From: a virus
Virus record (IMG/VR): IMGVR_UViG_3300045912_000789
Location: 64,001 to 128,000 of that record
Direction: 5' to 3' (one strand)
DNA length: 64,000 bases
The notes under the pieces are model-generated. The model was not told the origin of the DNA, ran no database searches, and was given only the letters and a program-made list of their open reading frames with translations. Positions 13,918 to 42,445 of this stretch are shown piece by piece. The number at the start of each line of letters is the position of its first letter. The first letter of the stretch is position 1. The position numbers and the translations under genes were made by a program.

Positions 13918-13920
13918 CGA

Positions 13921-14568: not shown

Positions 14569-14579
14569 AGTACCTCCAC

Positions 14580-14590
14580 CTGCTGATAGG
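14580..14590 (-). promoter_or_regulatory. Phage-specific promoter-like motif CCTATCAGCAG
   Basis: 2 nt upstream of the RBS; recurs at 25672, 39214 and 41940. Confidence 0.6.
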
Positions 14591-14595
14591 CTCGT

Positions 14596-14625
14596 TTGAC
14601 CGCTTTCCCCTCTCCGAGATACGCT
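14596..14625 (+). promoter_or_regulatory. sigma70-like promoter TTGACC-N18-TACGCT (leaderless transcript predicted)
   Basis: ATG 6 nt after the -10 with no RBS; same geometry at 25699. Confidence 0.6.
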
Positions 14626-14631
14626 TCGGGC

Positions 14632-16206
14632 ATGCGAATCGCCGGGATCGTGCTCGACCTCTACGACGATCCGAAGGGTGTCGTCCTTCGGAACAAGCTC
14701 GCGTCGTCCGACCGTCAACTGCCGCCGAAGCTCGCTTCGGCTCGCGTCCTCAGCGCCGAAGAGCTGGAGCGCCTGCCGGACCGGCTCTTCGCCATGGTCG
14801 CGACCAACGGCGACGAGGTCGTCCGCAAGTACGCGATGCACGACGAGGCACACCTCGTCCTGTCGATGATCTACTTCGACGAGGCCGGGCACCTCCTTCC
14901 TCCCGAGGTGCAGCAGAAGGTCGCGGCGAACCTGATCAATGGCTGCTCGTGGTATGCGATGGATCCGCCCGAGGCGCTGGTGAAGCGCGCGATGATCGGC
15001 GGAGCCCTCACGGCGCTCACCGCGGGCATGGGCGTCATGGACATGGCGTCGAAGGCGCGCGAGGGGGCACAGCAGGGCCGGGAGCGCATGGAGGCGTTCC
15101 GTCAGGCGCAAGCGAGCGGCACGAAGACCTCGTCGGGCCGGGAGATCCAGCTCTCGCTGGATCAGGACTCCGCGATGCAGCGCGGCGAAGGCCCCGAAGG
15201 CGGTCACATCTGGGACGCCTTCTCGCACTTCTCCGATCTCGAAGCCACGCACCGCAAGCTCGATGCCCAGCTCGCGAAGCGCGACCAGCCGGATCCGGTG
15301 CTCGGCGGGCACCCCCACCGCCACAAGAAGGCCGATCTCGTCGGGACCGAGGCGATGCCGCAGGCGACCCTGCGGTCGGGGAGCGGCCGGCCGTCGCCGA
15401 CCTCGCGCCTCAACCTCCCGATGAAGACGGCGGCGGGGAAGATCGCCGCGGTGATGGTCCCCGAGGGCTGGGTTCACGCCGGCGACATCACACGGGCCGA
15501 GGCTCCGGTGACGGTGAAGAAGGCGAGCCACACGCACTTCGCCCTTCCCCACCTCCAGCGCTACCCGATCGACAGCGCCGCCCTCGTCACGAAGGCGGCG
15601 TCCTATTTCGACGAGCACCTCTTCGACTTCCCGCTCACCGAGCGACGCGTGTTCGCGCAGTCGGTCGTGTCGCGCGCCGACGAGCTGGGGGTGAAGGTCG
15701 CCGGGCGCGTCCTCGACTACGCCGGCGAGGGCTACGGCCCGAACCTCGTGCCCGAGCTGCACGCCCGCATCCACCAGTTCGAGGGGACGGGTCACGAGGC
15801 GGTCTACGAGCTGCTGCTGGAGAAGCGCGCCGAGGTCGATCCGATGATCATGGCGGAGATGCTCCGCGAGGCCGACGAGGAGACCGGCGCGTCCCGCTCG
15901 TACGGCCGGCCGGGCGTCGGGCTGCTCGATCCGTACGCGGCCGTCTACGGTGGCGCGAAGGTCGCGGCCAAGAAGCCGAAGGAAGAGGAGACGTACTCCT
16001 GGAACGAGGGAGGCGACTACGTCTCGGGCATGCAGCTCATGGCCCTGGCGAAGCAGGGGCTCAAGCTCAACGAGATGTTCGGCGCGGGGTTCGCCGACGA
16101 GTTCCAGAAGGACCCGATCGGGGTCTTCAAGAGCATGCCGAGCCCCCAGAAGGTGGTACTCTCGCGGCTCGCGGGCGACAGCAACGCCGGCACGTTCAGG
16201 GTCTGA
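14632..16206 (+). CDS. putative head-associated protein with DUF6582-like modules and many KxA motifs
   Basis: FAM...RKYAMHDEAH and FALPHLQRYPID modules; more than 10 KxA sites. Confidence 0.65.
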   Translation: MRIAGIVLDLYDDPKGVVLRNKLASSDRQLPPKLASARVLSAEELERLPDRLFAMVATNGDEVVRKYAMHDEAHLVLSMIYFDEAGHLLPPEVQQKVAANLINGCSWYAMDPPEALVKRAMIGGALTALTAGMGVMDMASKAREGAQQGRERMEAFRQAQASGTKTSSGREIQLSLDQDSAMQRGEGPEGGHIWDAFSHFSDLEATHRKLDAQLAKRDQPDPVLGGHPHRHKKADLVGTEAMPQATLRSGSGRPSPTSRLNLPMKTAAGKIAAVMVPEGWVHAGDITRAEAPVTVKKASHTHFALPHLQRYPIDSAALVTKAASYFDEHLFDFPLTERRVFAQSVVSRADELGVKVAGRVLDYAGEGYGPNLVPELHARIHQFEGTGHEAVYELLLEKRAEVDPMIMAEMLREADEETGASRSYGRPGVGLLDPYAAVYGGAKVAAKKPKEEETYSWNEGGDYVSGMQLMALAKQGLKLNEMFGAGFADEFQKDPIGVFKSMPSPQKVVLSRLAGDSNAGTFRV

Positions 16207-16231
16207 AGGAAGAACACAGGAGGATACGATC

Positions 16232-17308
16232 ATGGGACTTTCCAAGGCATTCGGCAGCAAGTCGCCCGCTCGCCCGCACCTCGTCGTCGGGCCCGGGGGT
16301 CAGGCGAACGAGATCGAGAAGCTGCGGTCGGACGTCGACGAGGCCTTCCTCTCGCTGGAGAAGGGCGGCATCATCGTCAAGTACTTCACCCAGGTGCCGA
16401 CCGACGCGGTCGACGCCGACGGGATCAAGACGACCTTCGTGTCGTCGGTCGCGCCGGTCGTCCTCACGGGCACCGACTTCGACGGCATCCTCGCCCCGGG
16501 CACCGGCTCGGCGCTGATCAAGTCGCCCAAGCGCGTGACGCTCACGGTCGGCGGTGGCGGCACGCCGGCTCACTGGACGGGCGGCGATCTCGTCTTCACC
16601 GGCAAGGACGTCGACGGCAAGGCGCTCAGCGAGACCGTCGCGTCGGGCGCGGGCGCGGGCACCACGACCACGGTCAACTACTTCGCCCAGCTCGACAGCG
16701 TGTCGATCCCGGCGCAGGGCGGCGCGCTCGCGCAGCTCACGCTCGGCGTGGCGGCCGACGCCGCGAACATCGCGTCGCTCGTCGCCTCGACCTCGGCGCA
16801 GGTCATCGACACGAACGCGGAGTTCAACCGCGCGCGCGTCGGCAACCGTCCGATGCCGTACGGTCGGCGCATCTCGTTCATCTTCGGCGCCAGCGCGGAC
16901 TGGATCACCTCGAACATCACGATCGAGGGTCTCGACGTCCGCGGCAAGCGGATCTCCGAGACCATCGCGGTCCCGAACGGTGGCGGCGGCACCGTGAACA
17001 CCACGAAGTTCTACGCCCAGGTGCTGAAGATCAGCATCCCGGCGCAGGGCGGTTCGGTGGGCACGGCGACGGTCGGCTTCCTCAACACCGAGCTGGGCGT
17101 GGACGTCAACCCGCTCAGCGACGTCGAGGCGGTCGCGGTCATCCGCGAGGCGAACGATCCGGGCACCGGCGTGTGGGCGGTGCCCGCGGCCGGCGCGCTC
17201 GATCCGGAGAGCGTCACGAACGCGGACCCCTACGGGCGCTACATCCCGGCGACGGCTCCGGACGGGATCCGCAGCTACGTCATCGCCTACCTGCCCTCCC
17301 CCGCCTGA
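16232..17308 (+). CDS. virion structural protein with two tandem beta-rich domains
   Basis: AGGAGG RBS; duplicated G.D..GK..SET...T...F/YAQ...SIPAQGG unit. Confidence 0.65.
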   Translation: MGLSKAFGSKSPARPHLVVGPGGQANEIEKLRSDVDEAFLSLEKGGIIVKYFTQVPTDAVDADGIKTTFVSSVAPVVLTGTDFDGILAPGTGSALIKSPKRVTLTVGGGGTPAHWTGGDLVFTGKDVDGKALSETVASGAGAGTTTTVNYFAQLDSVSIPAQGGALAQLTLGVAADAANIASLVASTSAQVIDTNAEFNRARVGNRPMPYGRRISFIFGASADWITSNITIEGLDVRGKRISETIAVPNGGGGTVNTTKFYAQVLKISIPAQGGSVGTATVGFLNTELGVDVNPLSDVEAVAVIREANDPGTGVWAVPAAGALDPESVTNADPYGRYIPATAPDGIRSYVIAYLPSPA

Positions 17309-17311
17309 TCG

Positions 17312-18265
17312 ATGAGCATCCTGCTCGACGAGAGCAGCATGCGGGTCTGGCCTCCTCGTGGGGCCGGATCCGCTGCTGCGTCGGGTGGCTCGGACGAAGC
17401 GCCACCGCCCGAGGAGGCCATCAGCATCGAGTCGCTGGTGTCCCGGGCGGTGTCGTGCGTCGACGAGGAAGAGAAGACCGCCGCGCTCAAGAGCGACGCG
17501 TCGATCGACCTCGCGGGCCAGGTGCCGTCCATGAAGGACATCTGGCGGCATCCCAACGCGCACCCGATCGTCCTCATGCTGCTCCTGCTCGACAAGTACG
17601 GGCAGGAGTACCTGGAGTGGCATCCCGACGTCCTCAAGATGACGCTGGAGCGAGACGGGATCGCGCTCTCCAACAAGGTCTGGAACAAGATCCTGGCCGG
17701 ACGAGTCGTGCTGATGTCGCCGTCGCCGTGGCGCCAGTGGGAGGTCTTCCACTGGGTGTCGCGTGCGCTGAGCGGCGAGAGCCCGAACTTCGTCTTCTAC
17801 GAGGAGGCTGAGATCGGTCACCTCGTGGTCGGGATGGAGATCATGAAGCTCGTCGACCCGAAGCGTCAGACCTCGTACGAGGTCGACAAGTTCGTGGCCG
17901 CCGTCTTCAAGCACGAGGGGATCCCGTTCATCCCGGCACCGCTCGACTTCGCCCAGCGTGAGCTGGAGGAGCCCAAGATCGAATGCACCCACTGCCTGGC
18001 CGTCCATCGTGACGACAACGACGTGCGGTGCGTGACCTGTGGGGAAGCGAAGCTGCGCAAGATCCCGTTCGAGTTCGAGGAGCTGAAGGCCGAGTGCAAG
18101 CAGCTCTGGGACGCGCGCAAGAAGCTGCCCCTGGCGGATGCCGTCGAGAACCTTCCTGACACCGGTGCCGGTTCTGCGGTATACCGGTTGCTGGTCGAGT
18201 GGGACCTCGTCAAGACCGTGAAGTCCCAGATGATCCAGCAGCTCAGGATGATCGGCGGCAGGTGA
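17312..18265 (+). CDS. hypothetical protein with C-terminal Zn ribbon
   Basis: CTHC...CVTC; EEKTAA site after a low-complexity N-terminus. Confidence 0.7.
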   Translation: MSILLDESSMRVWPPRGAGSAAASGGSDEAPPPEEAISIESLVSRAVSCVDEEEKTAALKSDASIDLAGQVPSMKDIWRHPNAHPIVLMLLLLDKYGQEYLEWHPDVLKMTLERDGIALSNKVWNKILAGRVVLMSPSPWRQWEVFHWVSRALSGESPNFVFYEEAEIGHLVVGMEIMKLVDPKRQTSYEVDKFVAAVFKHEGIPFIPAPLDFAQRELEEPKIECTHCLAVHRDDNDVRCVTCGEAKLRKIPFEFEELKAECKQLWDARKKLPLADAVENLPDTGAGSAVYRLLVEWDLVKTVKSQMIQQLRMIGGR

Positions 18266-19221
18266 TGAACGCGTACGACGTCTTCTACGAGGAGGTCACG
18301 AAGTCGGCGACAGCCACACGGGCGCTCACCCGTGCTGCTCGCTGGCTGACCGAATCGCCCGGGCGAACCGCCCTGGTCGGTGCCGGAGTCGGTGCCGCCC
18401 AGGGCGCGCTCATGCACGGGGACGAAGGCGTCGGTGCGGCAGCCCTCAAGGGCGGCCTTCGAGGGGCGGCGGTCGGTGGAGCTGCCGGCGGGCTCGGGCG
18501 CGCCTACCGCGACACCCGTCTGCTCAACCCGGCGCTGTCGTCGGGCGCGGCGGTGGGCGAGACCGCGAAGCGGATCGGTCAGGGCATCAAGGACTTCGGC
18601 AAGCGTCAGATCCACGGCTTCACCGGCGCGTACGCCGACCAGGCCGGTGAGATCGGCATGCGCAGTCGAGCTGCTGCGTCCAAGAAGATTGATCTCCTTC
18701 GCAAGCGCCAGGCCGATCTGGCCGCTCACGGAGAGCTGACCGACAAGGCGAAGAAGAAGCTCGTCGAGGAGGCGAAGGGTCTCCGCGAGTGGGGCGCCGG
18801 CGGAGACGCGGCGCTCAAGGCGGGGATCACGAACATCCCCGGCATCGTGAAGGGCATGGCGACGCGCCCGTTCTCCACGATGAAGGCGATGGGCAAGGAC
18901 ATGGTCGGCGGAGGCGGAGCCCTGGGTACCTCGGTCGCGCTCGGGCTCCCCCTCGCCATCGCAACTCCCGATCTGGCTCGCGGAGACGAGAGTGCGCACG
19001 GCGGGCGGTCCATGAGGCAGAAGCTCGTGGGCGTCGGCTCGGGTCTCGTCGGAGGCGCACTCACCGCGGGCGTTCCCGTTCTTCCCCAGCTCGTGGGCGG
19101 CGTGGCCGTCGACGCAGCAGCGAGCAAGGCGCTCGGCGGGAAGAAGCGTCTCGCGAAGGCCTCTCGTGAGGCCGGACAAGAGGCGATCAACACCACCCTC
19201 GGCGTTCCCGGAGGGACCTGA
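18265..19221 (+). CDS. glycine-zipper protein with N-terminal leader MNAYDVFYEEVTKSA
   Basis: TGATG coupling; multiple GxxxG hydrophobic segments. Confidence 0.7.
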   Translation: MNAYDVFYEEVTKSATATRALTRAARWLTESPGRTALVGAGVGAAQGALMHGDEGVGAAALKGGLRGAAVGGAAGGLGRAYRDTRLLNPALSSGAAVGETAKRIGQGIKDFGKRQIHGFTGAYADQAGEIGMRSRAAASKKIDLLRKRQADLAAHGELTDKAKKKLVEEAKGLREWGAGGDAALKAGITNIPGIVKGMATRPFSTMKAMGKDMVGGGGALGTSVALGLPLAIATPDLARGDESAHGGRSMRQKLVGVGSGLVGGALTAGVPVLPQLVGGVAVDAAASKALGGKKRLAKASREAGQEAINTTLGVPGGT

Positions 19222-21143
19222 TGTTCTTCAGCGGCGTTTCAGGTTCTGCCCTCGGCATGGGTGGTCGGATGGCGGTGAGCGGCAACGCGAACCGCAGCGA
19301 GATCCTCGGCCGTAGGTACCAGCCCTTCGCGAACCCCTTCTTCGATCAGGCGAGCACGTACACGCCGCCGTCGATCAAGGCACTGTTCGGGTTCTGTCGG
19401 TTCTACTTCCTGACGCACGGCATCATCAACGCCGTCGTCACCAAGGCCGCCGAGTACCCGGTCACCGATCTCATCCTCCAGCACAAGGACGAGGGCGTCC
19501 GCTCGCGGTGGGAGGAGCTGCTGCTGGGCGTGATGAACTACCGCGTCCACCAGTACGAGATCAACCTCGACTACTTCGTCTACGGCAACGCGTTCCTCAG
19601 CGCGAGCTTCCCGTTCCGCAAGAAGCTGATCTGCGGCAACAGCATGTGCCGCGCAGAGCACGACTGCCTCAACGTCCGGCCGAGCTGGCGCTACATCAGC
19701 GGTCGGTTCTGGTTCCAGTGCCCGACCTGCGGTCAGACCGACTTCGCTCGGAGCCGCGACGACTACTATCCGAAGTACAGCGAGATCGGTCTGATCCGCT
19801 GGAACCCGGAGTACGTCCACATCTTCTACAACGAGGCCACCGGCCGGATGGACTACGGGCTCGACATCAGCCCGGACTTCCGCGCGCAGGTCATGATGGG
19901 CCGCAAGGATCTCGTCGCGACCACACCCGAGATCTTCCTCGAAGCCGTCCGCACGCACCGTCAGCTCGTGTTCGACAAGTCCGAGGTCTTCCACATGCGG
20001 AGGCCCGGGCTGTCCACGATGTCGCGCGGCTGGGGCATCCCGCTGCTCATGCCGGTGCTGAAGGATGCCTTCTACATCCAGGTGATGCGCAAGGCGCAGG
20101 AGGCCGTGCTCCTCACGCACCTCGTGCCGCAGATCTTCCTGTTCCCGCAGCCGGCCACCGCCGGCGCGGATCCGTTCACGACGGTGGACCTCGCGAACTG
20201 GCGAGACCACATCCGGCGCGAGCTGGCGCGCCAGCGCGTCGACCCCAGCTACTACGGCATCCTGCCGTTCCCGCTCGGTCACCAGGTCATCGGCGAGAAC
20301 GGGCGCAGCCTGCTGCTGATGCCGGAGATCCAGCAGATGTACGAGATCATGGTGGCGGGCCTCGGCTTCCCCATCGATCTCGTCTTCGGTCACGGCACGT
20401 ACGCCGGCACCAGCGTGTCGATGCGCATGCTGGAGAACTTCTTCCTCTCGAACGTGCTCGGCCATCACCGCCTGCTCGACTGGGTGCTGAAGCGGATGGG
20501 CGCGTACATGAACTGGCCGCTGCCGCAGGGCCGCTTCAAGCCGTTCCGCATGGCGGACGATCTCCAGCGCCAGGCGATGATGATGCAGCTCAACCAGTTC
20601 GGGAAGGTGAGCGACGCCACCCTGCTCTCGTACACCGATCTCAAGGTCGAGGACGAGGCGGAGCTGATGCTCAAGGAGGCGAAGGTCAAGGCGGAGGCGC
20701 TCCGACAGAAGACGCTCGTCGAGGCCGAGGCCCAGGGTGAGGCTCAGCTCGTGATCGCCAAGTACCAGGCACAAGCCCAGGCGGCGATGCAGAAGGGCAT
20801 GCTGAAGGAGACCGCGCCGAAGCGGACGCCGTTCGACGAGATCCAGGGTCAGAGCGCAGCAGCCCAGCCGGGCGGCTACTCGATGGACGCCGTCGCGGCG
20901 GCTCTGGCGAACAAGATCAAGACGATGCCGCCCGAGCAGCAGAAGGTGTACCTCCAGCAGCTCCAGCAGAAGGCCCCCGAGATGGGCGAGCTGCTGGCGC
21001 AGCAGGGGCTCATGATGCCGCCCGAGGCCGGGGCGGTCCTGCCGGGCCAGGACGGCTCCCAGGGCGCGATGCCGGCCCCTCCGGCGGTCGACATGCGCCC
21101 GATGCCCGAGCAGCTCCCTCCGCGCCGCGCAGGGGCCGTCTGA
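19221..21143 (+). CDS. portal protein (putative) with Zn-finger insertion
   Basis: YFLTHGIINAVVTKAAEYP, DYFVYGNAF, FHMRRP, GWGIP motifs; helical C-terminus with Q/P tail. Confidence 0.65.
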   Translation: MFFSGVSGSALGMGGRMAVSGNANRSEILGRRYQPFANPFFDQASTYTPPSIKALFGFCRFYFLTHGIINAVVTKAAEYPVTDLILQHKDEGVRSRWEELLLGVMNYRVHQYEINLDYFVYGNAFLSASFPFRKKLICGNSMCRAEHDCLNVRPSWRYISGRFWFQCPTCGQTDFARSRDDYYPKYSEIGLIRWNPEYVHIFYNEATGRMDYGLDISPDFRAQVMMGRKDLVATTPEIFLEAVRTHRQLVFDKSEVFHMRRPGLSTMSRGWGIPLLMPVLKDAFYIQVMRKAQEAVLLTHLVPQIFLFPQPATAGADPFTTVDLANWRDHIRRELARQRVDPSYYGILPFPLGHQVIGENGRSLLLMPEIQQMYEIMVAGLGFPIDLVFGHGTYAGTSVSMRMLENFFLSNVLGHHRLLDWVLKRMGAYMNWPLPQGRFKPFRMADDLQRQAMMMQLNQFGKVSDATLLSYTDLKVEDEAELMLKEAKVKAEALRQKTLVEAEAQGEAQLVIAKYQAQAQAAMQKGMLKETAPKRTPFDEIQGQSAAAQPGGYSMDAVAAALANKIKTMPPEQQKVYLQQLQQKAPEMGELLAQQGLMMPPEAGAVLPGQDGSQGAMPAPPAVDMRPMPEQLPPRRAGAV

Positions 21144-21162
21144 GGGCAAAGTAGACGGGCGA

Positions 21163-21184
21163 AGCCCGGGGCTGTCCCCGGGCT
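21163..21184. terminator. bidirectional hairpin between convergent genes
   Basis: 9-bp stem agcccgggg/ccccgggct. Confidence 0.6.
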
Positions 21185-22625
21185 ACGACCACAGCTTGTA
21201 GAGGTTCGGCGGGGTGTAGTCCGCCAGGACCCTCTCGATGTGCTTCCACTGGGGGTGGGAGCGTACGGCGTTCTCGATGTCCGGGCTCGATGCCCCGTGC
21301 GGCTTCAGGAGCGCGAGGAACGAGATCGTGTCGTTCTCCGTGACGTCCCGCAGAGCCTCACGGACCATGATCGATTCACGGTTCATGCGGTGCAGACGGT
21401 CCATCACTGTCTCCCAGTCGGCGATCGACGAGGCGTCGGTGATGCGGAGGTTCTTGGCGGCGCGGTCCGCCTCGTTCTCGATGTTCGGCAGACGCTTCAC
21501 TCGGCCTGGGTGATCGGTGAGGAAGCGCCTGAGCACGACCGGCCCGAGCTTCTCGGCGTACGGCAGAGCCGCAGCCCGCAGCCCAGGCTGCTTCGTCACC
21601 GGCTCGATCAGCATCCAGTCCATCTCGTCGAGGATGTTGATGATCCCGATTGAGCGCACAGCGCGGACCTCGTCGATGGTGGGGGCGCGCCCGATGCGCT
21701 CCAGGATCTCCTTGCGGACGTCCGGAGCGCTCTGGGCGAGCTGGCGCAGGCCCATCACGTAGTGCTCTTCGGAGGTGTCGCTTCGGAAGAGCGCCACCAT
21801 CTTCCGCGACCCTTGGAGATCGTCGAACAGGCTCGCGGCTCTCTGTGGCGTGCAGAGCCGGACGAAGACGGCCATGTCCGCGTAGCGGAACCCGCCCTTC
21901 TTGTCGCCGGTGCACAGCTTGCGGGCCTGGTCGAACGCTGCCTCGCGCATGGCAGGCAGCACGTCGCGGTTCTTCAGGCCCGAGATCATCGCGAACGCTT
22001 CGATGTTCTGGGGCCCGAGCCGCTGCTTCAGGCGGTGGGTGTAGCTCTCGGGCGTGAACGCACCTTCGAGGTAGAACGAGTCGACCTGATCATCCATCGC
22101 GACACGAGGGAGCCGAAGCTCCTCGAAGTCGGGGATGACCCAGGTGCGCGTCATGTTCCGATCCGTGAACCACTTCCCCCAGTCCATCTTGCCGAGGTCG
22201 GGGTCGCGGAAGAACTCCGGCATCTTCGCCGCCGCCCACCGATCCCGCGACTTGATCAGCGCCGCACGCTCTTCGAGGACGAGCTTCGCCGCTTCCTCGT
22301 TCCCGAACACGGCGTAGTACGCGGCGATGTGGAGCGGGTCGCTGAGTCCGTGATCGTCGTCGGTCTTGTACGGGTTCTTGTACCCGATGCCAGCCGTTCG
22401 TAGCCGCACCGGGTTGATCCCGTACGCCACCGCCTTCGACCACGTCACGTCGCTGTCGAGCTGGCTGGTCTCCTGCACGAGGCCCAGGATCTGTCGTAGA
22501 CGATCCCCGGACGCCATGAGCATCGCGTCGAAGGTCCGGTTCTCCGAGACGCTGATGTAGCTGTACCTGAAGAACCGCTCTCGGATGATCTGGTTCGCCA
22601 GGTTCTGGATGAGAGAGATCACCAT
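21183..22625 (-). CDS. hypothetical alpha-helical protein (480 aa) downstream of MoxR-vWA
   Basis: Overlaps the vWA stop; long ORF with coding-like bias. Confidence 0.7.
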   Translation of the reverse strand: MVISLIQNLANQIIRERFFRYSYISVSENRTFDAMLMASGDRLRQILGLVQETSQLDSDVTWSKAVAYGINPVRLRTAGIGYKNPYKTDDDHGLSDPLHIAAYYAVFGNEEAAKLVLEERAALIKSRDRWAAAKMPEFFRDPDLGKMDWGKWFTDRNMTRTWVIPDFEELRLPRVAMDDQVDSFYLEGAFTPESYTHRLKQRLGPQNIEAFAMISGLKNRDVLPAMREAAFDQARKLCTGDKKGGFRYADMAVFVRLCTPQRAASLFDDLQGSRKMVALFRSDTSEEHYVMGLRQLAQSAPDVRKEILERIGRAPTIDEVRAVRSIGIINILDEMDWMLIEPVTKQPGLRAAALPYAEKLGPVVLRRFLTDHPGRVKRLPNIENEADRAAKNLRITDASSIADWETVMDRLHRMNRESIMVREALRDVTENDTISFLALLKPHGASSPDIENAVRSHPQWKHIERVLADYTPPNLYKLWS

Positions 22626-25032: not shown

Positions 25033-25412
25033 TCGTCCTCCTCGTCTTCCTCTTCTTCGTCTTCGTCTTCGTCGTCTTCGGCTTCCTCGGCGTACATCGC
25101 CTGTTCGACGAGATCCGTGTAGCACTGCTCGTGCGCGTACTTCGTGACTGTCTCGTCCGTGACGAAGCCGAGCTGGTTGTTCGGCAGCTTCACGATCTGG
25201 AGCTTGGCGTCCGGGTCCGGCACGAACATCGGGACGTCGAACTCTCGGCTCGGGAAGATCATCCCCGGGATCATCATGATGACGGGGGTGCCCACCCCGA
25301 CGTTCTCTTCCCCGCAGAGATCGCACGGGGCGGTGATGTCGTCGAAGCCCTCGAAGTTGTTCGGGGGCTCCGCTTCGGCTTCCATCTGCTCTCTGCTGAT
25401 CTTGTCCTTCAT
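25029..25412 (-). CDS. hypothetical protein with acidic tail
   Basis: CDLC...HEQC; poly-D/E C-terminus; ATGA coupling. Confidence 0.65.
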   Translation of the reverse strand: MKDKISREQMEAEAEPPNNFEGFDDITAPCDLCGEENVGVGTPVIMMIPGMIFPSREFDVPMFVPDPDAKLQIVKLPNNQLGFVTDETVTKYAHEQCYTDLVEQAMYAEEAEDDEDEDEEEEDEEDE

Positions 25413-25657: not shown

Positions 25658-25671
25658 CTGGTCCTCCACGC

Positions 25672-25728: not shown

Positions 25729-25734
25729 GCGTGG

Positions 25735-33089: not shown

Positions 33090-33091
33090 GG

Positions 33092-33102
33092 TGTGGTACC
33101 AT
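33092..33102 (+). promoter_or_regulatory. extended -10 element TGTG-G-TACCAT
   Basis: 7 nt before ATG 33110. Confidence 0.4.
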
Positions 33103-33109
33103 GACCGCC

Positions 33110-35185: not shown

Positions 35186-36123
35186 TGCTCCGACACCCCG
35201 CTCGCCACTACATCTACTACCTGTTCTCGAAGAGGGGGATGACCACGTCGGACGTGGTCACCCACCTCGACGATCTCCGCATGCCTCTGCCCCAGCTCGA
35301 CACCGAGCTGGTGAAGTTCATCCGGCGGATGGTGCGTGCTCGCCAGGAGATGGAGATCCCTCCGGGGTTCGACCCGCTGGCCGAGCAGATGAACCCCGAC
35401 ACGATCCGCTTCCTCAACCACTGGCAGATCGGGGACATGTGGCGGAAGGACCCCTTCGTGGGTCTCGCCATCGACATCCTCAGCGAGCCCGTGGTCCGCC
35501 GCATGATCGAGGCCCTGCTCCTCGGCCCCATCAGCCCCACCGCCATCGCGGCCCGGGTGAAGAACCGGTTCGGCTTCGACGAGTCGGTGATGAACGTGCG
35601 TGTGATCAACGCGTACGCGCACTACTTCTGGAACATCAGCGCGCTCAGCTCGGCGGAGTGGCGGACCCTGATCACGCGCTGGCTCCCCGACGAGAACAAC
35701 AACGACTACCTCGGGGCGCTGGGATCTCCGCGAAGCCCCGCCGGCGCTGCGCTCACCCTGGCGCTCGTGGACCGCAGCGCGGAGAGCCTGAGCCCGGTCG
35801 TCCAGTACTCGGCGTTCCGAGACCACGGCTTCTCGCTCTTCATGGAGCACGCGCTACTCCAGACGCGTCCCTCGCTTCAGCGCACGCAGGGCGCGTTCAT
35901 GGCGTTCAACATGGTGAAGATGGCCGACGAGGAGCTGACCAAGCATCGCGGCGGCTCGGCGGATCTGCTCGAAGAGTTCCGCAAGATCCAGACGCTGTAC
36001 GATCCTAGTCGGATGACGTCGGTGAAGGAGCTGCCTGCTCTGGCACCTGCCGTCATCGACGTGAAGCCCGAAGACTTCGAGGAAGTCCCCGAGGTCCAGC
36101 CCGAAGACAAGGAGATCGCATGA
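35185..36123 (+). CDS. hypothetical protein (312 aa), terminase small subunit candidate by position only
   Basis: TGATG coupling; helical; upstream of terL. Confidence 0.6.
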   Translation: MLRHPARHYIYYLFSKRGMTTSDVVTHLDDLRMPLPQLDTELVKFIRRMVRARQEMEIPPGFDPLAEQMNPDTIRFLNHWQIGDMWRKDPFVGLAIDILSEPVVRRMIEALLLGPISPTAIAARVKNRFGFDESVMNVRVINAYAHYFWNISALSSAEWRTLITRWLPDENNNDYLGALGSPRSPAGAALTLALVDRSAESLSPVVQYSAFRDHGFSLFMEHALLQTRPSLQRTQGAFMAFNMVKMADEELTKHRGGSADLLEEFRKIQTLYDPSRMTSVKELPALAPAVIDVKPEDFEEVPEVQPEDKEIA

Positions 36124-36515
36124 GCATCGCACCGGCAACCGAGGAAGAGAAGGAAGTGCTCGACGGGGGCTCGCCCCTCCGCGGACTGAAGGACGCCATC
36201 CCCGATCGCATGGCGAAGCAGACGGCGGACTACGACGTCGTCTACGGGATCCGCGCCGACGACCAGGCGATGATCTTCCACTTCTTCCCGCCGGGGAGCG
36301 ACCCGCCGAACAAGCTGGGCTCCTGGCGGGACGCCTACCGGATCCACGACCGCCTCGAAGCGGCCATCCCGAAGGCGTTCGACATCCGCTTCGTGAAGGC
36401 CACCTACACGAGCGAGCTGCGCAGCTTCTGCATCATCGTGCGGGGCCTCGGCCGTTCGATGGACCCCTGGCACTTCGTCCATCGCTTCTTCGAGGCGATC
36501 GACGCCCCTCTCTGA
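36120..36515 (+). CDS. hypothetical protein (131 aa)
   Basis: AGGAG RBS, ATGA coupling. Confidence 0.7.
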   Translation: MSIAPATEEEKEVLDGGSPLRGLKDAIPDRMAKQTADYDVVYGIRADDQAMIFHFFPPGSDPPNKLGSWRDAYRIHDRLEAAIPKAFDIRFVKATYTSELRSFCIIVRGLGRSMDPWHFVHRFFEAIDAPL

Positions 36516-36714
36516 TCGTCATCCGGTAGGCCTTCGGGAAGCCAACGGAGAACGACGTGCCATGCGCGCGGTTGTACTCCTTGATGAACTTCTCGGAGGC
36601 CTGGCGGAACTGATCGCTGGGAGGCAAACTGAACCGGAACCACATCACCCCGTCCTGATCTCGCCGGGAGTCGGCGACCGCACTTCCCAGCCAGGTCAAG
36701 AACAGACCGGACAT
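36433..36714 (-). CDS. possible small protein on the opposite strand
   Basis: Fills a 200-nt plus-strand gap; protein-like composition; start overlaps the terL ATG. Confidence 0.35.
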   Translation of the reverse strand: MSGLFLTWLGSAVADSRRDQDGVMWFRFSLPPSDQFRQASEKFIKEYNRAHGTSFSVGFPKAYRMTIREGRRSPRRSDGRSARGPSNGRGPAR

Positions 36715-38548
36715 GGCATCGAGACCCATCTTCGCCGACATCGACTACAGCTCCTTCGAGGGTGGGGACCGCTCGAAGCAAAGATACGTCGATGATCCGT
36801 TCGCCACCAGCGCTGCCCGGGCGGCTCGGTCGCCGGCGCAGATCGCGCTGCGCACCTCCCAGTGGACCTCCCACATGGTGCGGGTGAAGGACGGCGACCG
36901 GGGGCGGGTCTCGCCCATGGTGTTCGATGAGCGGCGCTACCTGCTGCGGCCGTACGACACCGAGGCGCGCGAGATCCTCTTCATGACCAGCCGCCAGACC
37001 GAGAAGTCGACGACGCTAGGCAACAAGCTGATCGCGCTCTGCGGGATGAACTGGTACCAGAACGCTCTGTTCGTCACCCCCTCGGCGACGCAGACGAAGG
37101 TCTTCAGCTCGGCGCGTATCGACGACATCGTCGAGATCAGCCCGATGGTCAAGGCGCTCACCCACAAGAGCCTGACCTGGAACATCCTGGAGAAGGAGTT
37201 CCTCACCCAGTCGAAGATCTACCTGCGGTACGCGTTCCTCAACGCTGATCGTATCCGCGGTATCTCGGTCAGCAGCATCTTCTACGACGAGGTGCAGGAC
37301 CTCCTGAAGGACGTCATCCCCGTCATCCGTGAGTCCGCGTCGCGCTTCCGCAACGCGCTGCACGTCTACTCGGGTACGCCGAAGACGTTCGACAACTCGA
37401 TCGAGGGGATCTGGGGAAAGCAGTCGACCATGTCCGAATGGGTAGTTCCGTGCGAGCACCACACCCCCTGCCACTGGATCGTGCTGGGGCCGAAGAACAT
37501 CGGGAAGAAGGGGCCCATCTGCGAGCGCTGTGGGCACGCGATCAACCCCGAACATCCGCAGGCGCAGTGGGTGGCGATGAACCCCGGCGCGACCGTCGAG
37601 GGCTACCGCATCTGCCGTCTGATGGTGCCCTGGTACTTCAAGCCGGACTTCACCGACAAGGACCCGTACAAGGCGTGGAAGTCGATCATCCACACCCTGG
37701 AGACCTATCCCACCGCTCAGTTCATGAACGAGGTCATGGCGATCTCGTACGACAGCGGAACGAAGCCGCTGACGCGCGGTGAGGTGGCCCGGGCGTGCGA
37801 CGAGACCGACACGTACATGATGGACGAGGAGCAGGTCGCAGAGCTGGCGAAGTCGCACCAGCTCTACGGCGGGATCGACTGGGGCACCGGCGAGAACGCC
37901 TACACCGTCATGACGGTGGGCGGGTACGTCCGTGGGGACAGCAGCTTCCAGATCCTCTACGCCAAGCGCTTCGACGGCTTGCTCACGGACCCCGAGCCGC
38001 AGATGAAGGAGATCATCCGGCTCATCAACCGGTTCCGCCTGAAGTACGTCGGCTGCGACTACGGCATGGGCTTCGTGCAGAACAAGAAGCTCACCAGCAT
38101 CTTCTCGGCCAAGAAGATCTTCCAGTTCCAGTACGCCGCCCGAGCGCCGAAGAAGATCGTCTACAAGGCAGCCCTGAACCGGTCGCTCGTCTTCCGCACG
38201 GCGGTGATGGCGGACATCTTCTCGGCGATCAAGACGATGAAGATCCGGCTGCCGTCGTGGGAGGTCTTCAAGGCCCCCTACGCCGAGGACCTGCTCAGCA
38301 TCCACGCCGAGTACTCGGACACGCTGCGCATGATCAAGTACGACAAGCCACGCAGCATCCCCGACGACACCTTCCACTCGATCCTCTACACGATGATCGT
38401 GAGCTTCTTCGATCACCGACGACCCGACATCATCGCGCCCATCCAGGAGGTCTCGACCGAGGAGGCCGCCGCGCGTGTCCGCGAAGAGGTCGCCATCGAA
38501 GAGATCGAGATGCACGTGGCGAACGACTGGTCGCGCAGCGAATGGTAG
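36713..38548 (+). CDS. terL: terminase large subunit (GpA-like)
   Basis: SRQTEKST, YDEVQD, SGTPK, Zn finger, nuclease GIDWG and PDDTFHS. Confidence 0.9.
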   Translation: MASRPIFADIDYSSFEGGDRSKQRYVDDPFATSAARAARSPAQIALRTSQWTSHMVRVKDGDRGRVSPMVFDERRYLLRPYDTEAREILFMTSRQTEKSTTLGNKLIALCGMNWYQNALFVTPSATQTKVFSSARIDDIVEISPMVKALTHKSLTWNILEKEFLTQSKIYLRYAFLNADRIRGISVSSIFYDEVQDLLKDVIPVIRESASRFRNALHVYSGTPKTFDNSIEGIWGKQSTMSEWVVPCEHHTPCHWIVLGPKNIGKKGPICERCGHAINPEHPQAQWVAMNPGATVEGYRICRLMVPWYFKPDFTDKDPYKAWKSIIHTLETYPTAQFMNEVMAISYDSGTKPLTRGEVARACDETDTYMMDEEQVAELAKSHQLYGGIDWGTGENAYTVMTVGGYVRGDSSFQILYAKRFDGLLTDPEPQMKEIIRLINRFRLKYVGCDYGMGFVQNKKLTSIFSAKKIFQFQYAARAPKKIVYKAALNRSLVFRTAVMADIFSAIKTMKIRLPSWEVFKAPYAEDLLSIHAEYSDTLRMIKYDKPRSIPDDTFHSILYTMIVSFFDHRRPDIIAPIQEVSTEEAAARVREEVAIEEIEMHVANDWSRSEW

Positions 38549-38566
38549 CAAAGTGAGATTGCCGAG

Positions 38567-38588
38567 GCCCCGAGCTTTCGCCCGGGGC
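38567..38588. terminator. hairpin between convergent genes
   Basis: gccccgagc-tttc-gcccggggc. Confidence 0.5.
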
Positions 38589-38611
38589 TCCGGCTTCCTC
38601 ACTCGCCGCGG

Positions 38612-39166
38612 TCAGCGGCTGGCGCGCTCGGGCGCGAACGGCCCGACCTCGGCGACGTACATCCCGACGCCCGTGGCCGCGCCGGCCACGACCGTCGCGC
38701 CCAGGACGCCGAGCGCGACCGCCTGCCAGGTCTCCAGGCCCTTCTTCGGCGCCTGCACGAGCCCACGCTCGTACGCGGCCTCGATGCCGATGGCCTGGAG
38801 CCCGCGCTCCGCGATGCCCTTCACGACCGGACCGGGATCCGCCGTGGTGAGCGCGCTGAGCGCCTGGTCCTTGGTCACCGGCACCTGGACCGGCTCCCAG
38901 GGGTTGGCGAGGCCGACCTTCGCCAGCCAGGAGTCGTTCTGCTTCGGCGCCTGGAGCGTCGGGGTCGGCGCGCCCTGGGCGGGCGCCGCGGCGGGCGGCG
39001 CGGCGACCGGGGCCCGGAAGCCCTTCGTCACCTGCGCGAGCGCCTCCGCCATCATCTTGCGGTTCTCGGCCACGAGGTTCTCGTGGTTGGCCTTGCCGAT
39101 CTCCTGGACGCGGCTGATGAGGGCCTGGAACTCGGGGGACATCTGGGTCTGGGTCTCGGTGGTCAT
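38612..39166 (-). CDS. hypothetical protein with C-terminal transmembrane helix
   Basis: AAGGAG RBS; WQAVALGVLGATVVAGAATGVGMYV. Confidence 0.7.
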   Translation of the reverse strand: MTTETQTQMSPEFQALISRVQEIGKANHENLVAENRKMMAEALAQVTKGFRAPVAAPPAAAPAQGAPTPTLQAPKQNDSWLAKVGLANPWEPVQVPVTKDQALSALTTADPGPVVKGIAERGLQAIGIEAAYERGLVQAPKKGLETWQAVALGVLGATVVAGAATGVGMYVAEVGPFAPERASR

Positions 39167-39213
39167 CGTGGTCTCTCCTTCGATTCGGTGTTGGTGAGCG
39201 TTCTGCTCCTCTA

Positions 39214-39245
39214 CTGCTCATAGCCGATCTTGCGACGTTTTTGAC
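39214..39245 (-). promoter_or_regulatory. Phage-specific promoter-like motif GTCAA-N16-GCTATGAGCAG
   Basis: Same motif and spacing as at 25672. Confidence 0.6.
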
Positions 39246-39300
39246 GCTGATCGCCCATGGCAAGCCCAGGAGACACCCGATCAGCGCCTCCTTTTTCGAT

Positions 39301-39331
39301 CGCTTATAGCTGGATTTAGCGGCGTTTTGAT
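39301..39331 (-). promoter_or_regulatory. Phage-specific promoter-like motif ATCAA-N16-GCTATAAGC
   Basis: Same spacing; followed by AAGGAGG. Confidence 0.55.
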
Positions 39332-39687
39332 CGCCGCCGCCGGACCTGGCGATCGTCCTCGTCGGCCTCTTCCTCGGCCACCTCTACCCGGACCCTCGGG
39401 TATTCCGCGTCGATCTTGTCGCGGATGCCCTCGGCCAAGGACCGGTCGGCGATGAGGATGCTGGCGACGGTCTCCAGCTTCTCGGCCTTCTCCAGCCGGT
39501 GGCGGTGGCGCTGCTCGGCGCGGTCCTTCGCCTGGCGCTCTTCTCGCTCATCGCGAGACGTTTCGATCCTGTGCTCGACCCATCGGTAGAGCCCGACCGA
39601 GGCTCCGCCGGCGAGGGTGACGCACGATAGGCCGAGAGCCACCACTGCATCGTGGTGGCTCAGGATCTCCCGGATGATCTCGTTCAT
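39316..39687 (-). CDS. single-TM coiled-coil protein (123 aa)
   Basis: TGATG coupling to gyrB; N-terminal hydrophobic helix. Confidence 0.65.
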   Translation of the reverse strand: MNEIIREILSHHDAVVALGLSCVTLAGGASVGLYRWVEHRIETSRDEREERQAKDRAEQRHRHRLEKAEKLETVASILIADRSLAEGIRDKIDAEYPRVRVEVAEEEADEDDRQVRRRRSKRR

Positions 39688-41627
39688 CAGATATCCAGCT
39701 CCCCGACGAACAGGGCGTTGTTCTCGATGAACTCCCGCCGGGCGTCGACGTTGCTGCCCATGAACAGGTCGAAGTAGCGCTCCGCGGCGATGGCGTCGGT
39801 GATCTCCACCTGCTTCAGCGCGCGTCCTTCGGGGTTCATGGTCGTGGCCCAGAGGTCGGGTGCGTTCATCTCGCCCAGACCCTTGAACCGCTGGATCTGG
39901 AGAGTCTTCCGCTGCTCGGTCGACAGCCCCTCGCGGAGCGCGTCCAGCGCGGCGTCGTCGGTCAGGAACTGGATGTTCTTCCGACCCGGGATCTTCACGC
40001 CGTACAGCGGGGGCTGCGCGATGTAGAGGTGGCCCTTGTAGACCAGCTCCGGCATGCACCGGTAGAAGAACGTCAGGAGCAGCGTGCGGATGTGCGCGCC
40101 GTCGACGTCTGCGTCGGTGAGCAGGATCACCTTGTGGTAGCGGAGCTTCGAGAGGTTGAAGGTGTTCGCCTGAACGATCCCGCAGTCCAGGGCGGTGATG
40201 ATGGTGCCGATCTCCTTGTTCTCCAGGATGCGGTCCGCGCCCTCGTCCTCCACGTTCAGCACCTTGCCGCGGAGCGGGAGGATCGCCTGGAATCGCCGGT
40301 CCCGGCCGCCCTTCGCCGAACCGCCGGCGCTGTCACCCTCGACGATGAACAGCTCGCACTCCTCCGGCTTCTTCGACTGGCAGTCGGCGAGCTTGCCGGG
40401 GAGGTAGCTGGCGTCGAGCCACTCCTTGCGCTGCACCCCCTCGCGCGCCTTTCGGGCTGCCTCGCGCGCCATCGCGTTCACCACCGCGCGCTCAGCGATC
40501 TTCTTGGCGACGCCGGGGTTGTCCTTGAAGTACCACTCCACCTGGTCGACGAACATCTGCTCGACGAGCGTCTTGGCTTTCGGGGTGACGAGCTTGTCCT
40601 TGGTCTGGCTGCTGAACGCGACCTCCGAGATGCGGAGGTTGACGATCGCGACGATGCCCTCTCGGATGTCGCCGCCGGTGAGCCCGTCCTCGGGCAGGTT
40701 CTTCAGGAGGTTGTGCTCCTTCGCGTAGGCGGTGACGAGCCGGGTGAGTCCGTTCTTGAAGCCGGTGAGGTGCGTCCCACCGTCACGGTTGTACGTGTTG
40801 TTGGCGTAGCACCGGATGTCCTCTTCGTGGCTGTCGGTCCAGCAGAAGACGAGATCGCAGTTCGACCGGTCGCTGAACGACAGGATCGGGATGAGCGTCT
40901 TCTTTTTGCCAACGACCTCGGCGAGGTAGTCCTTCACGCCGCCCTTGTAGAAGTACGTCTCCGACCACTCCTTCTTGGCGCGCTTGTCGGTGAAGACGAT
41001 CGTCAGGCCGGGGTTCAGGAAGGCCAGCTCCCGCAGGCGCTCGCCGACCTGCTTGCGATCGTACTCGGTGACGCCCTTGAAGATCTGGAGATCACGCTTC
41101 CACGTCACCTTCGTGCCGTGCTTCGTCGTGCGGTCGCCCTTGTGGACGTTGTCCTCGGGGATCCCGCGCTCGTAGCGCTGCGTCCAGATGAAGCCGTCTC
41201 GATGGACCTCGGCCACGAGCCACTCGCTCACGGCGTTGACTGCCGAGACGCCGACGCCGTGGAGACCGGCGGACTTCTCGTAGCTGCCCTGGTCGAACTT
41301 CCCGCCGGCGTGCAGATCGCACATGACCATCTGGAGAGCGGAGACCTTCTCCTCGGGGTGGATGTCGGTCGGGATGCCACGGCCGTTGTCCACCACCTCG
41401 CAGATCCCGTCTTCCAGCAGCGTCACGTGGATCTGATCGCAGTGCCCACCGAGATGCTCGTCGACGCTGTTGTCGACGACCTCCTTGATGCAGTGGTGCA
41501 GGGCGTCCCCGCTGGTCGGGTCGCCGAGGTACATGCCGGGACGCTCACGAACGGCCTCCAAGCCCTTCAGCTTCCGGATGGCGCCGGCGTCGTACTTCTT
41601 CGGTTCGATCTTGTCCTTCTTCGCCAC
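39687..41627 (-). CDS. gyrB: DNA gyrase / type IIA topoisomerase subunit B
   Basis: LEAVRERPGMY, EVVDNSVDE, DNGRGIP, GLHGVGVS, VEGDSAGG, PLRGK, DADVDG, RFKGLGEM. Confidence 0.95.
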   Translation of the reverse strand: MAKKDKIEPKKYDAGAIRKLKGLEAVRERPGMYLGDPTSGDALHHCIKEVVDNSVDEHLGGHCDQIHVTLLEDGICEVVDNGRGIPTDIHPEEKVSALQMVMCDLHAGGKFDQGSYEKSAGLHGVGVSAVNAVSEWLVAEVHRDGFIWTQRYERGIPEDNVHKGDRTTKHGTKVTWKRDLQIFKGVTEYDRKQVGERLRELAFLNPGLTIVFTDKRAKKEWSETYFYKGGVKDYLAEVVGKKKTLIPILSFSDRSNCDLVFCWTDSHEEDIRCYANNTYNRDGGTHLTGFKNGLTRLVTAYAKEHNLLKNLPEDGLTGGDIREGIVAIVNLRISEVAFSSQTKDKLVTPKAKTLVEQMFVDQVEWYFKDNPGVAKKIAERAVVNAMAREAARKAREGVQRKEWLDASYLPGKLADCQSKKPEECELFIVEGDSAGGSAKGGRDRRFQAILPLRGKVLNVEDEGADRILENKEIGTIITALDCGIVQANTFNLSKLRYHKVILLTDADVDGAHIRTLLLTFFYRCMPELVYKGHLYIAQPPLYGVKIPGRKNIQFLTDDAALDALREGLSTEQRKTLQIQRFKGLGEMNAPDLWATTMNPEGRALKQVEITDAIAAERYFDLFMGSNVDARREFIENNALFVGELDI

Positions 41628-41629
41628 GG

Positions 41630-41887
41630 TCACTCCATTCCCACGAGGTGCCAGATCAGTCCGATGTGGTGCTGGACGATCGGGTTGCTCTTGTACTTGT
41701 CGCCCAGCTTGCGGCTGATCCCGACGTAGGAACGCCGGAAGCATTCCTGGTCGTACGTCGAGAACTGCGGCCACAGCTCTCTGATCGCGCGGTAGTAGTT
41801 GATGATCTGCTCTGGGTCATCATCCATCGCACTGGCTGCCCAGTGCAGGACCCAGAACAGGGTGCCTTCGGCGACCTTCACGGCCAC
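41630..41887 (-). CDS. hypothetical protein (~85 aa)
   Basis: Directly upstream of gyrB; start may be GTG 41881. Confidence 0.6.
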   Translation of the reverse strand: MAVKVAEGTLFWVLHWAASAMDDDPEQIINYYRAIRELWPQFSTYDQECFRRSYVGISRKLGDKYKSNPIVQHHIGLIWHLVGME

Positions 41888-41896
41888 CCGAGGTAG

Positions 41897-42376
41897 CTAC
41901 GTACCGGCCTTCTGTGCGCTTCCATGTAGACCTCCTCGCCTGCTGATAGCTGCGAGGACGGTCTTGATCCGCAGGGGGTTGCCGGCGACGTCGCGCGGAG
42001 CGATCTTGCGCAGGCCCTGGAGGTTCAGCAGATCCTGCGCGATGCTCAGGAGGTGTTGTCGGCAGGTCTCCAGGTCGATGCCGTTCTCGATGAAACGATC
42101 GAGCAGCACGAGGAACGGGTGCCACGGGGTGGGGTCGCGCAGACGACGGGCCATCAGGAGCAGCGCCCGGGCGTCGAGGACGTAGATCTGGCGCTCCCAG
42201 TGCCGAGCCGTGACCTCGTCGTCGAACGCCTCCTGCCGGCAGGCGTCGAAGTAGAGCGTGGTGAGGTGGGTGGGGTGCGGTAGCTGGTGGGCTGCGCCGA
42301 GCAGCAGCGTCTCCACGATCCCCATCTTCCGTGAGAGATCTGCGAGGGTCGCGCGGTCGGCGAGGGTGTCGGTCAT
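41897..42376 (-). CDS. hypothetical protein (159 aa)
   Basis: AGGA RBS; protein-like ORF. Confidence 0.55.
   Translation of the reverse strand: MTDTLADRATLADLSRKMGIVETLLLGAAHQLPHPTHLTTLYFDACRQEAFDDEVTARHWERQIYVLDARALLLMARRLRDPTPWHPFLVLLDRFIENGIDLETCRQHLLSIAQDLLNLQGLRKIAPRDVAGNPLRIKTVLAAISRRGGLHGSAQKAGT
41940..41950 (-). promoter_or_regulatory. Phage-specific promoter-like motif GCTATCAGCAG
   Basis: Shares CGTCCTCGCAGCTATCAGCAGGCG with the 25672 copy. Confidence 0.6.
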
Positions 42377-42415
42377 GCGATTCCTGGTGCGTTGAGGGAT
42401 CCGATCCTGTATGTA

Positions 42416-42445
42416 TTCCCCTAACGGGCCGAAGTAGGCTACCAT
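42416..42445 (+). promoter_or_regulatory. sigma70-like promoter TTCCCC-N18-TACCAT at the start of the head operon
   Basis: Good -10, weak -35, same 18-nt spacer. Confidence 0.35.

Follow-up and report, generated by a model that had tools for sequence, protein, structure and literature searches.

RNA polymerases (RNAPs) that are injected together with phage DNA are known from N4, phiKZ-like, crAss-like and P23-45 phages, and none of them has been described as a recognisable bacterial core with a sigma factor. The virion RNAP of N4 is a T7-like single-subunit domain within a protein of 3500 amino acids (aa), and its counterpart in the crAss-like phage phi14:2, gp66, is a two-barrel enzyme that has diverged strongly; no use of a sigma is described for either. 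In phi14:2, early transcription is rifampicin-resistant and the middle and late genes are read by host RNAP, and it was this precedent of a virion RNAP acting early and host RNAP acting late, shared with N4, that an earlier note on the DNA considered here had correctly quoted. To our knowledge, phages of the phiKZ/AR9 type are independent of host RNAP and work without a sigma70-family factor. PMC7598289 describes them as carrying two sets of split multisubunit RNAPs, one of which is packaged and injected for early promoters. A further lineage, mReC, comprises tailed phages with deep-branching beta and beta' genes, including Yersinia phage YerA41 (Weinheimer and Aylward 2020, PMC7481178); the words "promoter", "sigma" and "virion" are absent from that paper. 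Here we analyse an uncultured phage of this already known lineage (PMC7481178) through a window of 64,000 nucleotides (nt), bases 64001-128000 of the 171,909-base-pair (bp) IMG/VR phage record IMGVR_UViG_3300045912_000789, which is rated 100% complete and encodes a single-chain beta-beta' RNAP. Positions are those of the window unless given for the whole record, G000; the relatives compared include G001, G003 and L005.

The closest RNAPs in cultured phages are those of Salmonella phage Arash (OQ632216; PMC10585845) and of the Vibrio phages D69, D148 and D181, with E-values of 1e-167 to 1e-171 and 28-29% identity. Arash also shares the portal, terminase, capsid and several virion proteins, as well as a gp10-type sigma in the same virion-gene neighbourhood. 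The Arash paper reports neither promoters nor timing, and raises a virion RNAP for early transcription as one possibility (PMC10585845); in the literature searched, no paper described the promoters, sigma partnership or timing of this lineage.

Two classes of upstream motif divide the genes of this phage between them (Table 1). From these motifs, their conservation, the partition of genes and the gene neighbourhood, all of which are observed directly, we infer which enzyme reads which class, and when. The most economical reading, which we hold tentatively and at just short of even confidence, is that the phage core with its sigma reads class A and host holoenzyme reads class B, and that the RNAP, probably along with the sigma, is made with the virion proteins, packaged, and starts the next cycle. 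Loaded into the particle and entering with the DNA, the single-chain beta-beta' core with its FliA/WhiG-like sigma would fire the class A promoters, which would drive replication, nucleotide and small early-type genes, the transfer-messenger RNA (tmRNA) and, in this genome, the sigma gene. Host RNAP would afterwards read class B, transcribing the virion operons and the RNAP gene into leaderless mRNAs, and would thereby supply particle parts and the next generation's RNAP. That the RNAP is made together with the virion proteins is suggested by the fact that the only RNAP gene is class B and lies among portal, spike and terminase. The earlier note had described an inverted transcription programme of this kind. 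What stands of it is that the RNAP gene shares promoter type, strand and neighbourhood with virion genes, and that the non-structural units carry a private motif; it overlooked the sigma, and one of its promoters, at 33092, is unsupported.

Genes were called by codon statistics because the GC content is about 65%, and 6.4% of the whole genome is non-coding. No near-identical DNA was found in the phage collection searched, and RNAP identity to this genome is 82% in G001 and 76% in G003. Strands alternate along the window (minus 26-14568, plus 14632-21143, minus 21183-25669, plus 25735-38548, minus 38612-42376, plus 42460-63366). Judged by Pfam matches and homology to Arash proteins, the minus-strand genes of the window are non-structural (PolA, primase and DnaB among them) and the plus-strand genes structural (among them portal, terminase and capsid), a split that had been proposed and that holds here.

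The RNAP matches Pfam Rpb2_6 at 2e-55 and Rpb1 domains 1-5, and its beta' part matches Thermus beta' in the PDB (E 4e-87). The whole genome has a single RNA_pol_Rpb2_6 match and no other RNAP gene; searches of it for a second RNAP or an alpha-like gene found neither. In this the phage differs from N4, which has a second, middle RNAP, and from the phiKZ type with its two beta/beta' gene sets: here the RNAP gene is single and fused, a sigma is encoded, and the virion genes carry host-type promoters; AR9 and PBS1 match only 9% of the RNAP. The genome instead has the make-up of mReC and Arash-like phages, with cellular-model beta/beta' domains in a tailed-phage genome that encodes terminase, portal, capsid and sheath, and with a gp10-type sigma beside virion genes. 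YerA41 is a much more distant RNAP match (E 6e-13, 32% coverage), and its RNAP genes are split. The likeness to N4 and phi14:2 lies in a polymerase gene placed among late or structural genes, in non-host early promoters and in host-type structural promoters; unlike the enzymes of those two phages, the RNAP here is a recognisable bacterial beta-beta' core with a sigma70-family partner. Equivalents of the Escherichia coli rifampicin-pocket residues D516, H526 and S531 read K, D and T (the region spans residues about 344-375, window 26760-26860), and because they are replaced the phage RNAP is predicted to be rifampicin-resistant.

The RNAP gene does lie among morphogenesis genes, as had been claimed, between portal and terminase, and shares strand, operon and promoter class with the units that encode portal, spike and terminase. 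Its stop codon overlaps the next start in a TGATG, and the product of that next gene matches the T4 gp5 beta-helix in a profile search of the PDB (E 5e-5), which bears out the proposed coupling to a baseplate spike gene; the spike-like protein gave an AlphaFold2 model too poor for use (predicted local distance difference test score, pLDDT, 42). The overlap, or an abutment, is kept in 5 of 6 relatives, the unclear case being L005, where the junction shows no start at the RNAP stop (4604) and a provisional start was placed upstream of it, at 4593. In Arash, the RNAP gene adjoins the portal gene, is split by inserted genes into gp206 and gp216, and is followed by an SNF2 helicase where the RNAP here is followed by the spike gene. 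A spike homologue downstream of the Arash RNAP was accordingly rejected, and the RNAP-spike coupling is confined to closer relatives because the Arash neighbour is that helicase. This SNF2/RapA-like protein, gp217 (L033:21261-22679), overlaps the RNAP end by 1 nt and equals the RNAP in abundance per residue in the particle proteome; that phage may carry an RNAP-recycling ATPase with its polymerase.

The class A motif SCTATNAG matches seven times in the window, always on the minus strand, against 2.8 expected, and seven matches were reached in one of 100 shuffles. The proposal of a non-sigma70 motif ahead of minus-strand genes is thereby upheld, with a wider scope: genome-wide there are 35 copies of CTATNAG on both strands, 28 of them within the small non-coding fraction, and the motif marks a gene class rather than a strand because a cluster of small plus-strand genes on the right arm carries it too. 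Total and non-coding counts are 35 and 28 in G001 and 31 and 25 in G003, and orthologous sites are kept in both. In a logo that combines 88 sites of three genomes, an A-rich patch occupies -19 to -16 and precedes two C-rich positions and an invariant CTATnAG, followed 3 nt later, at a fixed distance, by GTGGAGG and then, at a variable distance, by the start codon, so that the full layout reads A-rich patch, ~13 nt, (C/G)CTAT(A/C/G)AG, 3 nt, GTGGAGG; sites typically lie 14-25 nt upstream of the start codon. Apart from the sigma gene of G000 and G003, the genes that class A heads are all non-structural. One copy (GCTATAAG) stands 35 nt upstream of the phage tmRNA gene, and because this gene is non-coding the motif is shown to be a signal for transcription and not for translation. 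On sequence grounds, class A is a promoter private to the lineage, unlike host-type sigma70 promoters. The window match at 6779 falls within the primase gene and is doubtful.

Several class A leaders have features of their own. A 24-nt stretch, CGTCCTCGCAGCTATCAGCAGGCG, around the core is identical at 41943 and 25675 (windows 41880-41960 and 25655-25695), and both copies have a CCTCGC/GCGAGG inverted repeat, the 3' arm of which extends into the ribosome-binding site; the 15-codon open reading frame that follows the 41943 site overlaps the start of the gene preceding GyrB. A CACCGAACAC / CACCAACACCGAA element is common to the long leaders that follow class A promoters, where it stands immediately 5' of the Shine-Dalgarno sequence (window 39175-39200; G000 129990-130020, 42060-42080 and 171790-171810); it may be a translational or RNA-stability signal. 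The tmRNA is of the one-piece type, with the tag ANDNSYAPAALAA (G000:C1:147719-148124, or window coordinates 83719-84124, beyond the window end), and the coding pattern of this tag had no exact match among the genome contigs searched for host identification.

A bacterial-type core needs a sigma. The genome encodes a homologue of Arash gp10, flanked by homologues of the Arash virion genes gp6, gp8, gp12 and gp13; its best scores, low but consistent, are with RpoD regions 2-4 and with FliA/WhiG models. We describe it as FliA/WhiG-like and do not file it as FliA because its TIGR02479 score, 21.6 bits, lies below the cut-off of 189.6 for that subfamily. A second sigma, Pfam sigma domains and a homologue of gp196, the second sigma of Arash, were looked for in the genome and not found. 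In an alignment, the residues of RpoD region 4.2 that read the -35 element are all replaced, which makes the phage sigma an unlikely reader of TTGACC. The sigma gene sits inside a class B-headed operon, with a CCTATCAG class A site directly upstream in G000 and G003, and it co-occurs with the single-chain RNAP (split in Arash) in G000, G001, G003 and Arash.

Promoters of FliA (sigma-28) have the consensus TAAA-N15-GCCGATAA. Class A shares with them a two-block layout in which a weak A-rich upstream element is followed by a long, strict -10-like element, and CCTATnA matches GCCGATAA at 6 of 8 positions, a resemblance that serves as a lead rather than a test. Set against this consensus, the class A logo, with its A-rich patch and CCTATnAG, differs in spacing (about 13 nt rather than 15), in one core base (T rather than G at position 4) and in its invariant G at the 3' end. 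In Arash, GGTATAAG, with the core TATnAG, occurs 31 times, 30 of them on the reverse, non-structural strand, and the one on the forward strand stands just ahead of gp9-gp10 (sigma), after gp8 and within a virion operon, as in G000; the two bases before TAT are GG in Arash and CC here. Because the core and its placement ahead of the sigma are kept despite 29% RNAP identity and clearly differing hosts, a phage-encoded factor would be expected to read class A. This retention is the strongest argument for such a reader, and the phage sigma, as the likelier determinant of CTATNAG recognition, is its probable identity.

Class B consists of a TTGACC-like hexamer, 18 nt and TA(G/C)nnT, usually exactly 6 nt from the start codon. 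Sigma70-like promoters had been proposed at four sites, which we compared by the presence of conserved -35 (TTGACA-like) and -10 (TAnnnT) hexamers 16-19 nt apart. Two of them, at 25699 and 14596, have both hexamers kept around a variable spacer, across six and three genomes, respectively. Upstream of the RNAP gene, the only blocks invariant in the six-genome alignment are CTGATAG, GCGTTGACCC, GTAGACT and the start codon, and because the hexamers are invariant while the 18-nt spacer drifts freely, we read the 25699 site as a two-hexamer promoter footprint. The site at 42416 matches this pattern in part, with a poor -35 and a block conserved in G003, the sole relative with a match there. The fourth, at 33092, was rejected: counterparts of TGGTACCAT (TACGAT) occur in two of six relatives, there is no -35, and the conserved start is ATG 33110.

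Class B genes lack a Shine-Dalgarno sequence, and 6 nt separate the end of the -10 element from the start codon. Housekeeping promoters have the transcript 5' end 6-8 nt past the -10 element. Class B mRNAs are thus likely leaderless, as the exact spacing suggests for the transcripts from 14596 and 25699. A -10 element close to the start is found at 7 of the 62 transcription-unit heads in the genome (P ~8e-6), and at exactly 6 nt in 6 of 62 (P ~3e-8); five further internal examples occur in the genome, and the elements are conserved in relatives. A generic sigma70 consensus scan recovered the 25699 site alone, at chance level, and for this reason support for class B is drawn from conservation and spacing. 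The -10 elements are degenerate, as in host-type promoters, and class B would accordingly be classed as a putative housekeeping-type promoter. Class B promoters could not be defined in the Arash genome, where a candidate lineage-specific -10, GTAGNCT, was rejected because it occurs at chance level.

At two divergent gaps of the window, class A and class B cores stand back to back, 5 bp apart at 14583/14596 (gap 14569-14631) and 16 bp apart at 25675/25699 (gap 25670-25734), and the pairing recurs at other divergent gaps of the genome. A stronger form of the favoured reading, which we regard as unlikely as a whole, would have the complete holoenzyme (beta-beta' core and sigma70-family factor) carried in the virion and injected to fire the private promoter class, with the paired promoters acting as a built-in temporal switch: at 5-16 bp apart they could not both be held by the two polymerases at once, and virion genes would come on only once the phage holoenzyme is titrated away.

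Promoter-bearing gaps also hold other elements. The motif GTATGTATTC(C/T)C has three genome copies, each in such a gap (window 42405-42421; G000 137085-137100 and 16395-16420), of which the one at 42405 overlaps the -35 of the head-tail promoter and is kept in G003; it may serve as an operator or represent a third type of promoter. An unusually AT-rich divergent gap of 208 bp (G000:C1:137050-137257, or window coordinates 73050-73257, outside the window) carries three TACTAACTACT-like repeats, two direct and one inverted, and is a candidate origin or regulatory region, possibly the site of true host-read immediate-early promoters.

Packaging is not readable from sequence, and the support for it comes from the particle proteomes of the distant relatives Arash and YerA41. 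In Arash particles, the RNAP protein gp206 ranks top with a spectral count of 3516 and 128 unique peptides, gp216 has 40 unique peptides and the sigma gp10 has 24, and the SNF2 helicase gp217 is also high (PMC10585845). Contaminant-like enzymes give few unique peptides, among them ribonucleotide reductase (RNR; 11 and 2), the RNA ligases and similar enzymes (PMC10585845); per residue, RNAP, sigma and gp217 group with portal and capsid and not with these enzymes. YerA41 particles likewise contain RNAP subunits and a sigma (PMC7354516).

A number of points weigh against a packaged RNAP that starts the cycle. Arash was purified on a single sucrose gradient, 116 proteins were called, and its authors offer carry-over as an alternative (PMC10585845); both proteomes list many non-structural enzymes. 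In YerA41, RNAP transcripts peak early, at 5-15 min, and the sigma is late (PMC7354516). The relatives with such data share only 24-29% RNAP identity with this phage. The RNAP bears no head-protein K-x-A signature, and no targeting signal was found in it: as the earlier note had pointed out, it has few such sites, one K-x-A-[SAG] over its 2076 aa where the genome mean is 2.0 per 1000 aa, although this depletion (1 seen, ~4 expected) is by itself not significant. Class B looks constitutive, with no delaying element in the sequence, so host RNAP could make the phage RNAP immediately, and the description of class B as host-like rests on the general sigma70 consensus. Finally, the G001 sigma lacks a class A promoter and is instead TGATG-coupled to an upstream virion gene.

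Several of these points fit the main rival, a T7-like order, in which host RNAP would read class B at entry and make the phage RNAP and, from its virion operon, the sigma, after which the new phage holoenzyme would switch on class A for replication and takeover; structural genes would be on from the start, rising with genome copy number, and RNAP in particles would be carry-over, with packaging not obligatory. We consider this order somewhat unlikely. Of the host-type promoters in the window, that of the RNAP gene is the best; the sigma gene is part of an operon headed by class B and lacks a separate promoter in G001, YerA41 RNAP is transcribed early, and both particle proteomes are contaminated with metabolic enzymes. 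On the other hand, expressing portal, terminase, capsid, sheath and giant virion proteins before replication genes would be unusual, and the RNAP gene sits among morphogenesis genes and is coupled to them in translation in 5 of 6 relatives, L005 being unclear. The per-residue scores of RNAP, sigma and SNF2 helicase in Arash, which resemble those of portal and capsid and stand far above those of RNR or the RNA ligases, are likewise hard to square with carry-over.

The sigma could alternatively be a late factor: an injected RNAP, acting with another determinant or as core alone, would read class A and turn on the sigma, which would then direct the RNAP to class B. An early-to-late relay would place a class A site ahead of the sigma gene, as is seen in G000, G003 and Arash; regions 2-4 of the protein are present so that a -35/-10 promoter should be readable, and the YerA41 sigma is classed as late. 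We nevertheless judge this relay improbable, since it is class A that is strict and lineage-specific, as expected of a dedicated sigma, whereas class B is degenerate and housekeeping-like; class A also resembles a FliA-type -10 and the sigma is FliA/WhiG-like, its counterparts of the RpoD region 4.2 residues for TTGACA are replaced, and searches of the genome gave no other specificity factor. Least probable of all, and by our estimate very improbable, is that the phage sigma hijacks the host core for class A and leaves the phage RNAP another, narrower job or the reading of class B: phages are well known to encode sigmas that redirect the host core (T4 gp55, SPO1 gp28) and by sequence the sigma could bind either core, but sigma and RNAP occur together in G000, G001, G003 and Arash and at similar per-residue levels in Arash particles, and a phage that reprogrammed the host core would hardly need a core of 2076 aa of its own.

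Beyond the RNAP and its promoters, the window has the gene content of a large tailed phage (Table 1). The head and tail unit also encodes homologues of the Arash virion proteins gp222, gp233, gp234, gp236 and gp237. K-x-A-[SAG] density reaches 14-17 per 1000 aa in the proteins encoded at 14632-16206 and 33110-35185, as against the genome mean given above, and the two are putative protease-processed head proteins by this density. For the portal, the most likely start is ATG 19221, which overlaps the preceding gene in a TGATG (window 19217-19225) and gives an N-terminus, MFFSG, that is kept in G001; this overlap is a second translational coupling within the morphogenesis units, besides that of RNAP and spike.

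Table 1. Features of the window, with the sigma gene located on the whole record.
Feature	Position	Strand	Details
Replication/non-structural block	26-14568	minus	Runs on leftward beyond window; Pfam matches, gene calls
PD-(D/E)XK nuclease	inside 26-14568	minus	Pfam
Class A core CCTATCAG	1483-1490	minus	Internal promoter candidate between RecA-like gene and next; without usual GGAGG block
RecA-like protein	1491-2792	minus	Pfam
PolA	3220-5202	minus	Pfam
DnaG-like primase	6443-7525	minus	Pfam
DnaB	7525-9066	minus	Pfam
UDG	11284-11970	minus	Pfam
DEAD/ResIII helicase	12491-13924	minus	Pfam
Class A core CCTATCAG	14583-14590	minus	Head of replication block; then caggtGGAGGtact and ATG; kept in G001, G003
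Class B promoter TTGACC-18-TACGCT	14596-14625	plus	Ends 6 nt before ATG 14632
Morphogenesis unit	14632-21143	plus	Portal is final gene
First gene of morphogenesis unit	14632-16206	plus	9 K-x-A-[SAG] sites
Portal	19221-21143	plus	Homologue of Arash gp204, E 6e-72; TGATG-coupled to preceding gene
GC-rich hairpin region	21144-21182		Between convergent units; probable terminator
Non-structural unit with small open reading frames	21183-25669	minus	First ATG 25657
DUF2201 metallopeptidase/VWA protein	22619-23830	minus	AAA+/VWA pair
AAA+ ATPase	23827-25032	minus	AAA+/VWA pair
Class A core GCTATCAG	25675-25682	minus	Then caggcGTGGAGGaccag and ATG 25657; CTGATAG invariant in 6 genomes
Class B promoter of RNAP gene, TTGACC-18-TAGACT	25699-25728	plus	Ends 6 nt before GTG 25735
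Single-chain beta-beta' RNAP	25735-31965	plus	2076 aa; catalytic loop GGDIDGD at residue 1404
TGATG stop/start overlap	31963-31967	plus	RNAP gene to spike gene
gp5-like central spike protein	31965-33089	plus	N-terminal beta-barrel; beta-helix residues 257-320
-10-like string TGGTACCAT	33092-33102	plus	Without -35; not supported as promoter
Probable processed head or internal protein	33110-35185	plus	10 K-x-A-[SAG] sites; start is conserved ATG 33110
Terminase large subunit	36713-38548	plus	Final gene of RNAP-containing unit
Non-structural unit	38612-42376	minus	Contains GyrB-like topoisomerase subunit, 39687-41633
Class A core GCTATGAG	39217-39224	minus	50 nt upstream of gene 38612-39166
Class A core GCTATAAG	39303-39310	minus	Tandem with site 39217
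Class A core GCTATCAG	41943-41950	minus	Upstream of 15-codon open reading frame and GyrB operon
Weaker class B-like promoter TTCCCC-18-TACCAT	42416-42445	plus	Head and tail unit; leadered
Head and tail unit	42472-63366	plus	Likely start ATG 42472
Major capsid protein	49667-50782	plus	
Tail sheath	59221-62325	plus	
Sigma, Arash gp10 homologue	G000 37944-38774		E 9e-21

The idea of a virion RNAP is directly testable in this lineage, given that relatives are in culture (Arash, D69) and that the phage enzyme is predicted to resist rifampicin. If it is true, a folded cellular-type enzyme of 230 kDa would be deliverable through a tail, and a minimal beta-beta'-sigma system with a defined 8-base promoter would be of use in mechanistic and synthetic-biology work. 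It would also explain how a widespread and almost unstudied group of large environmental phages takes over the cell.

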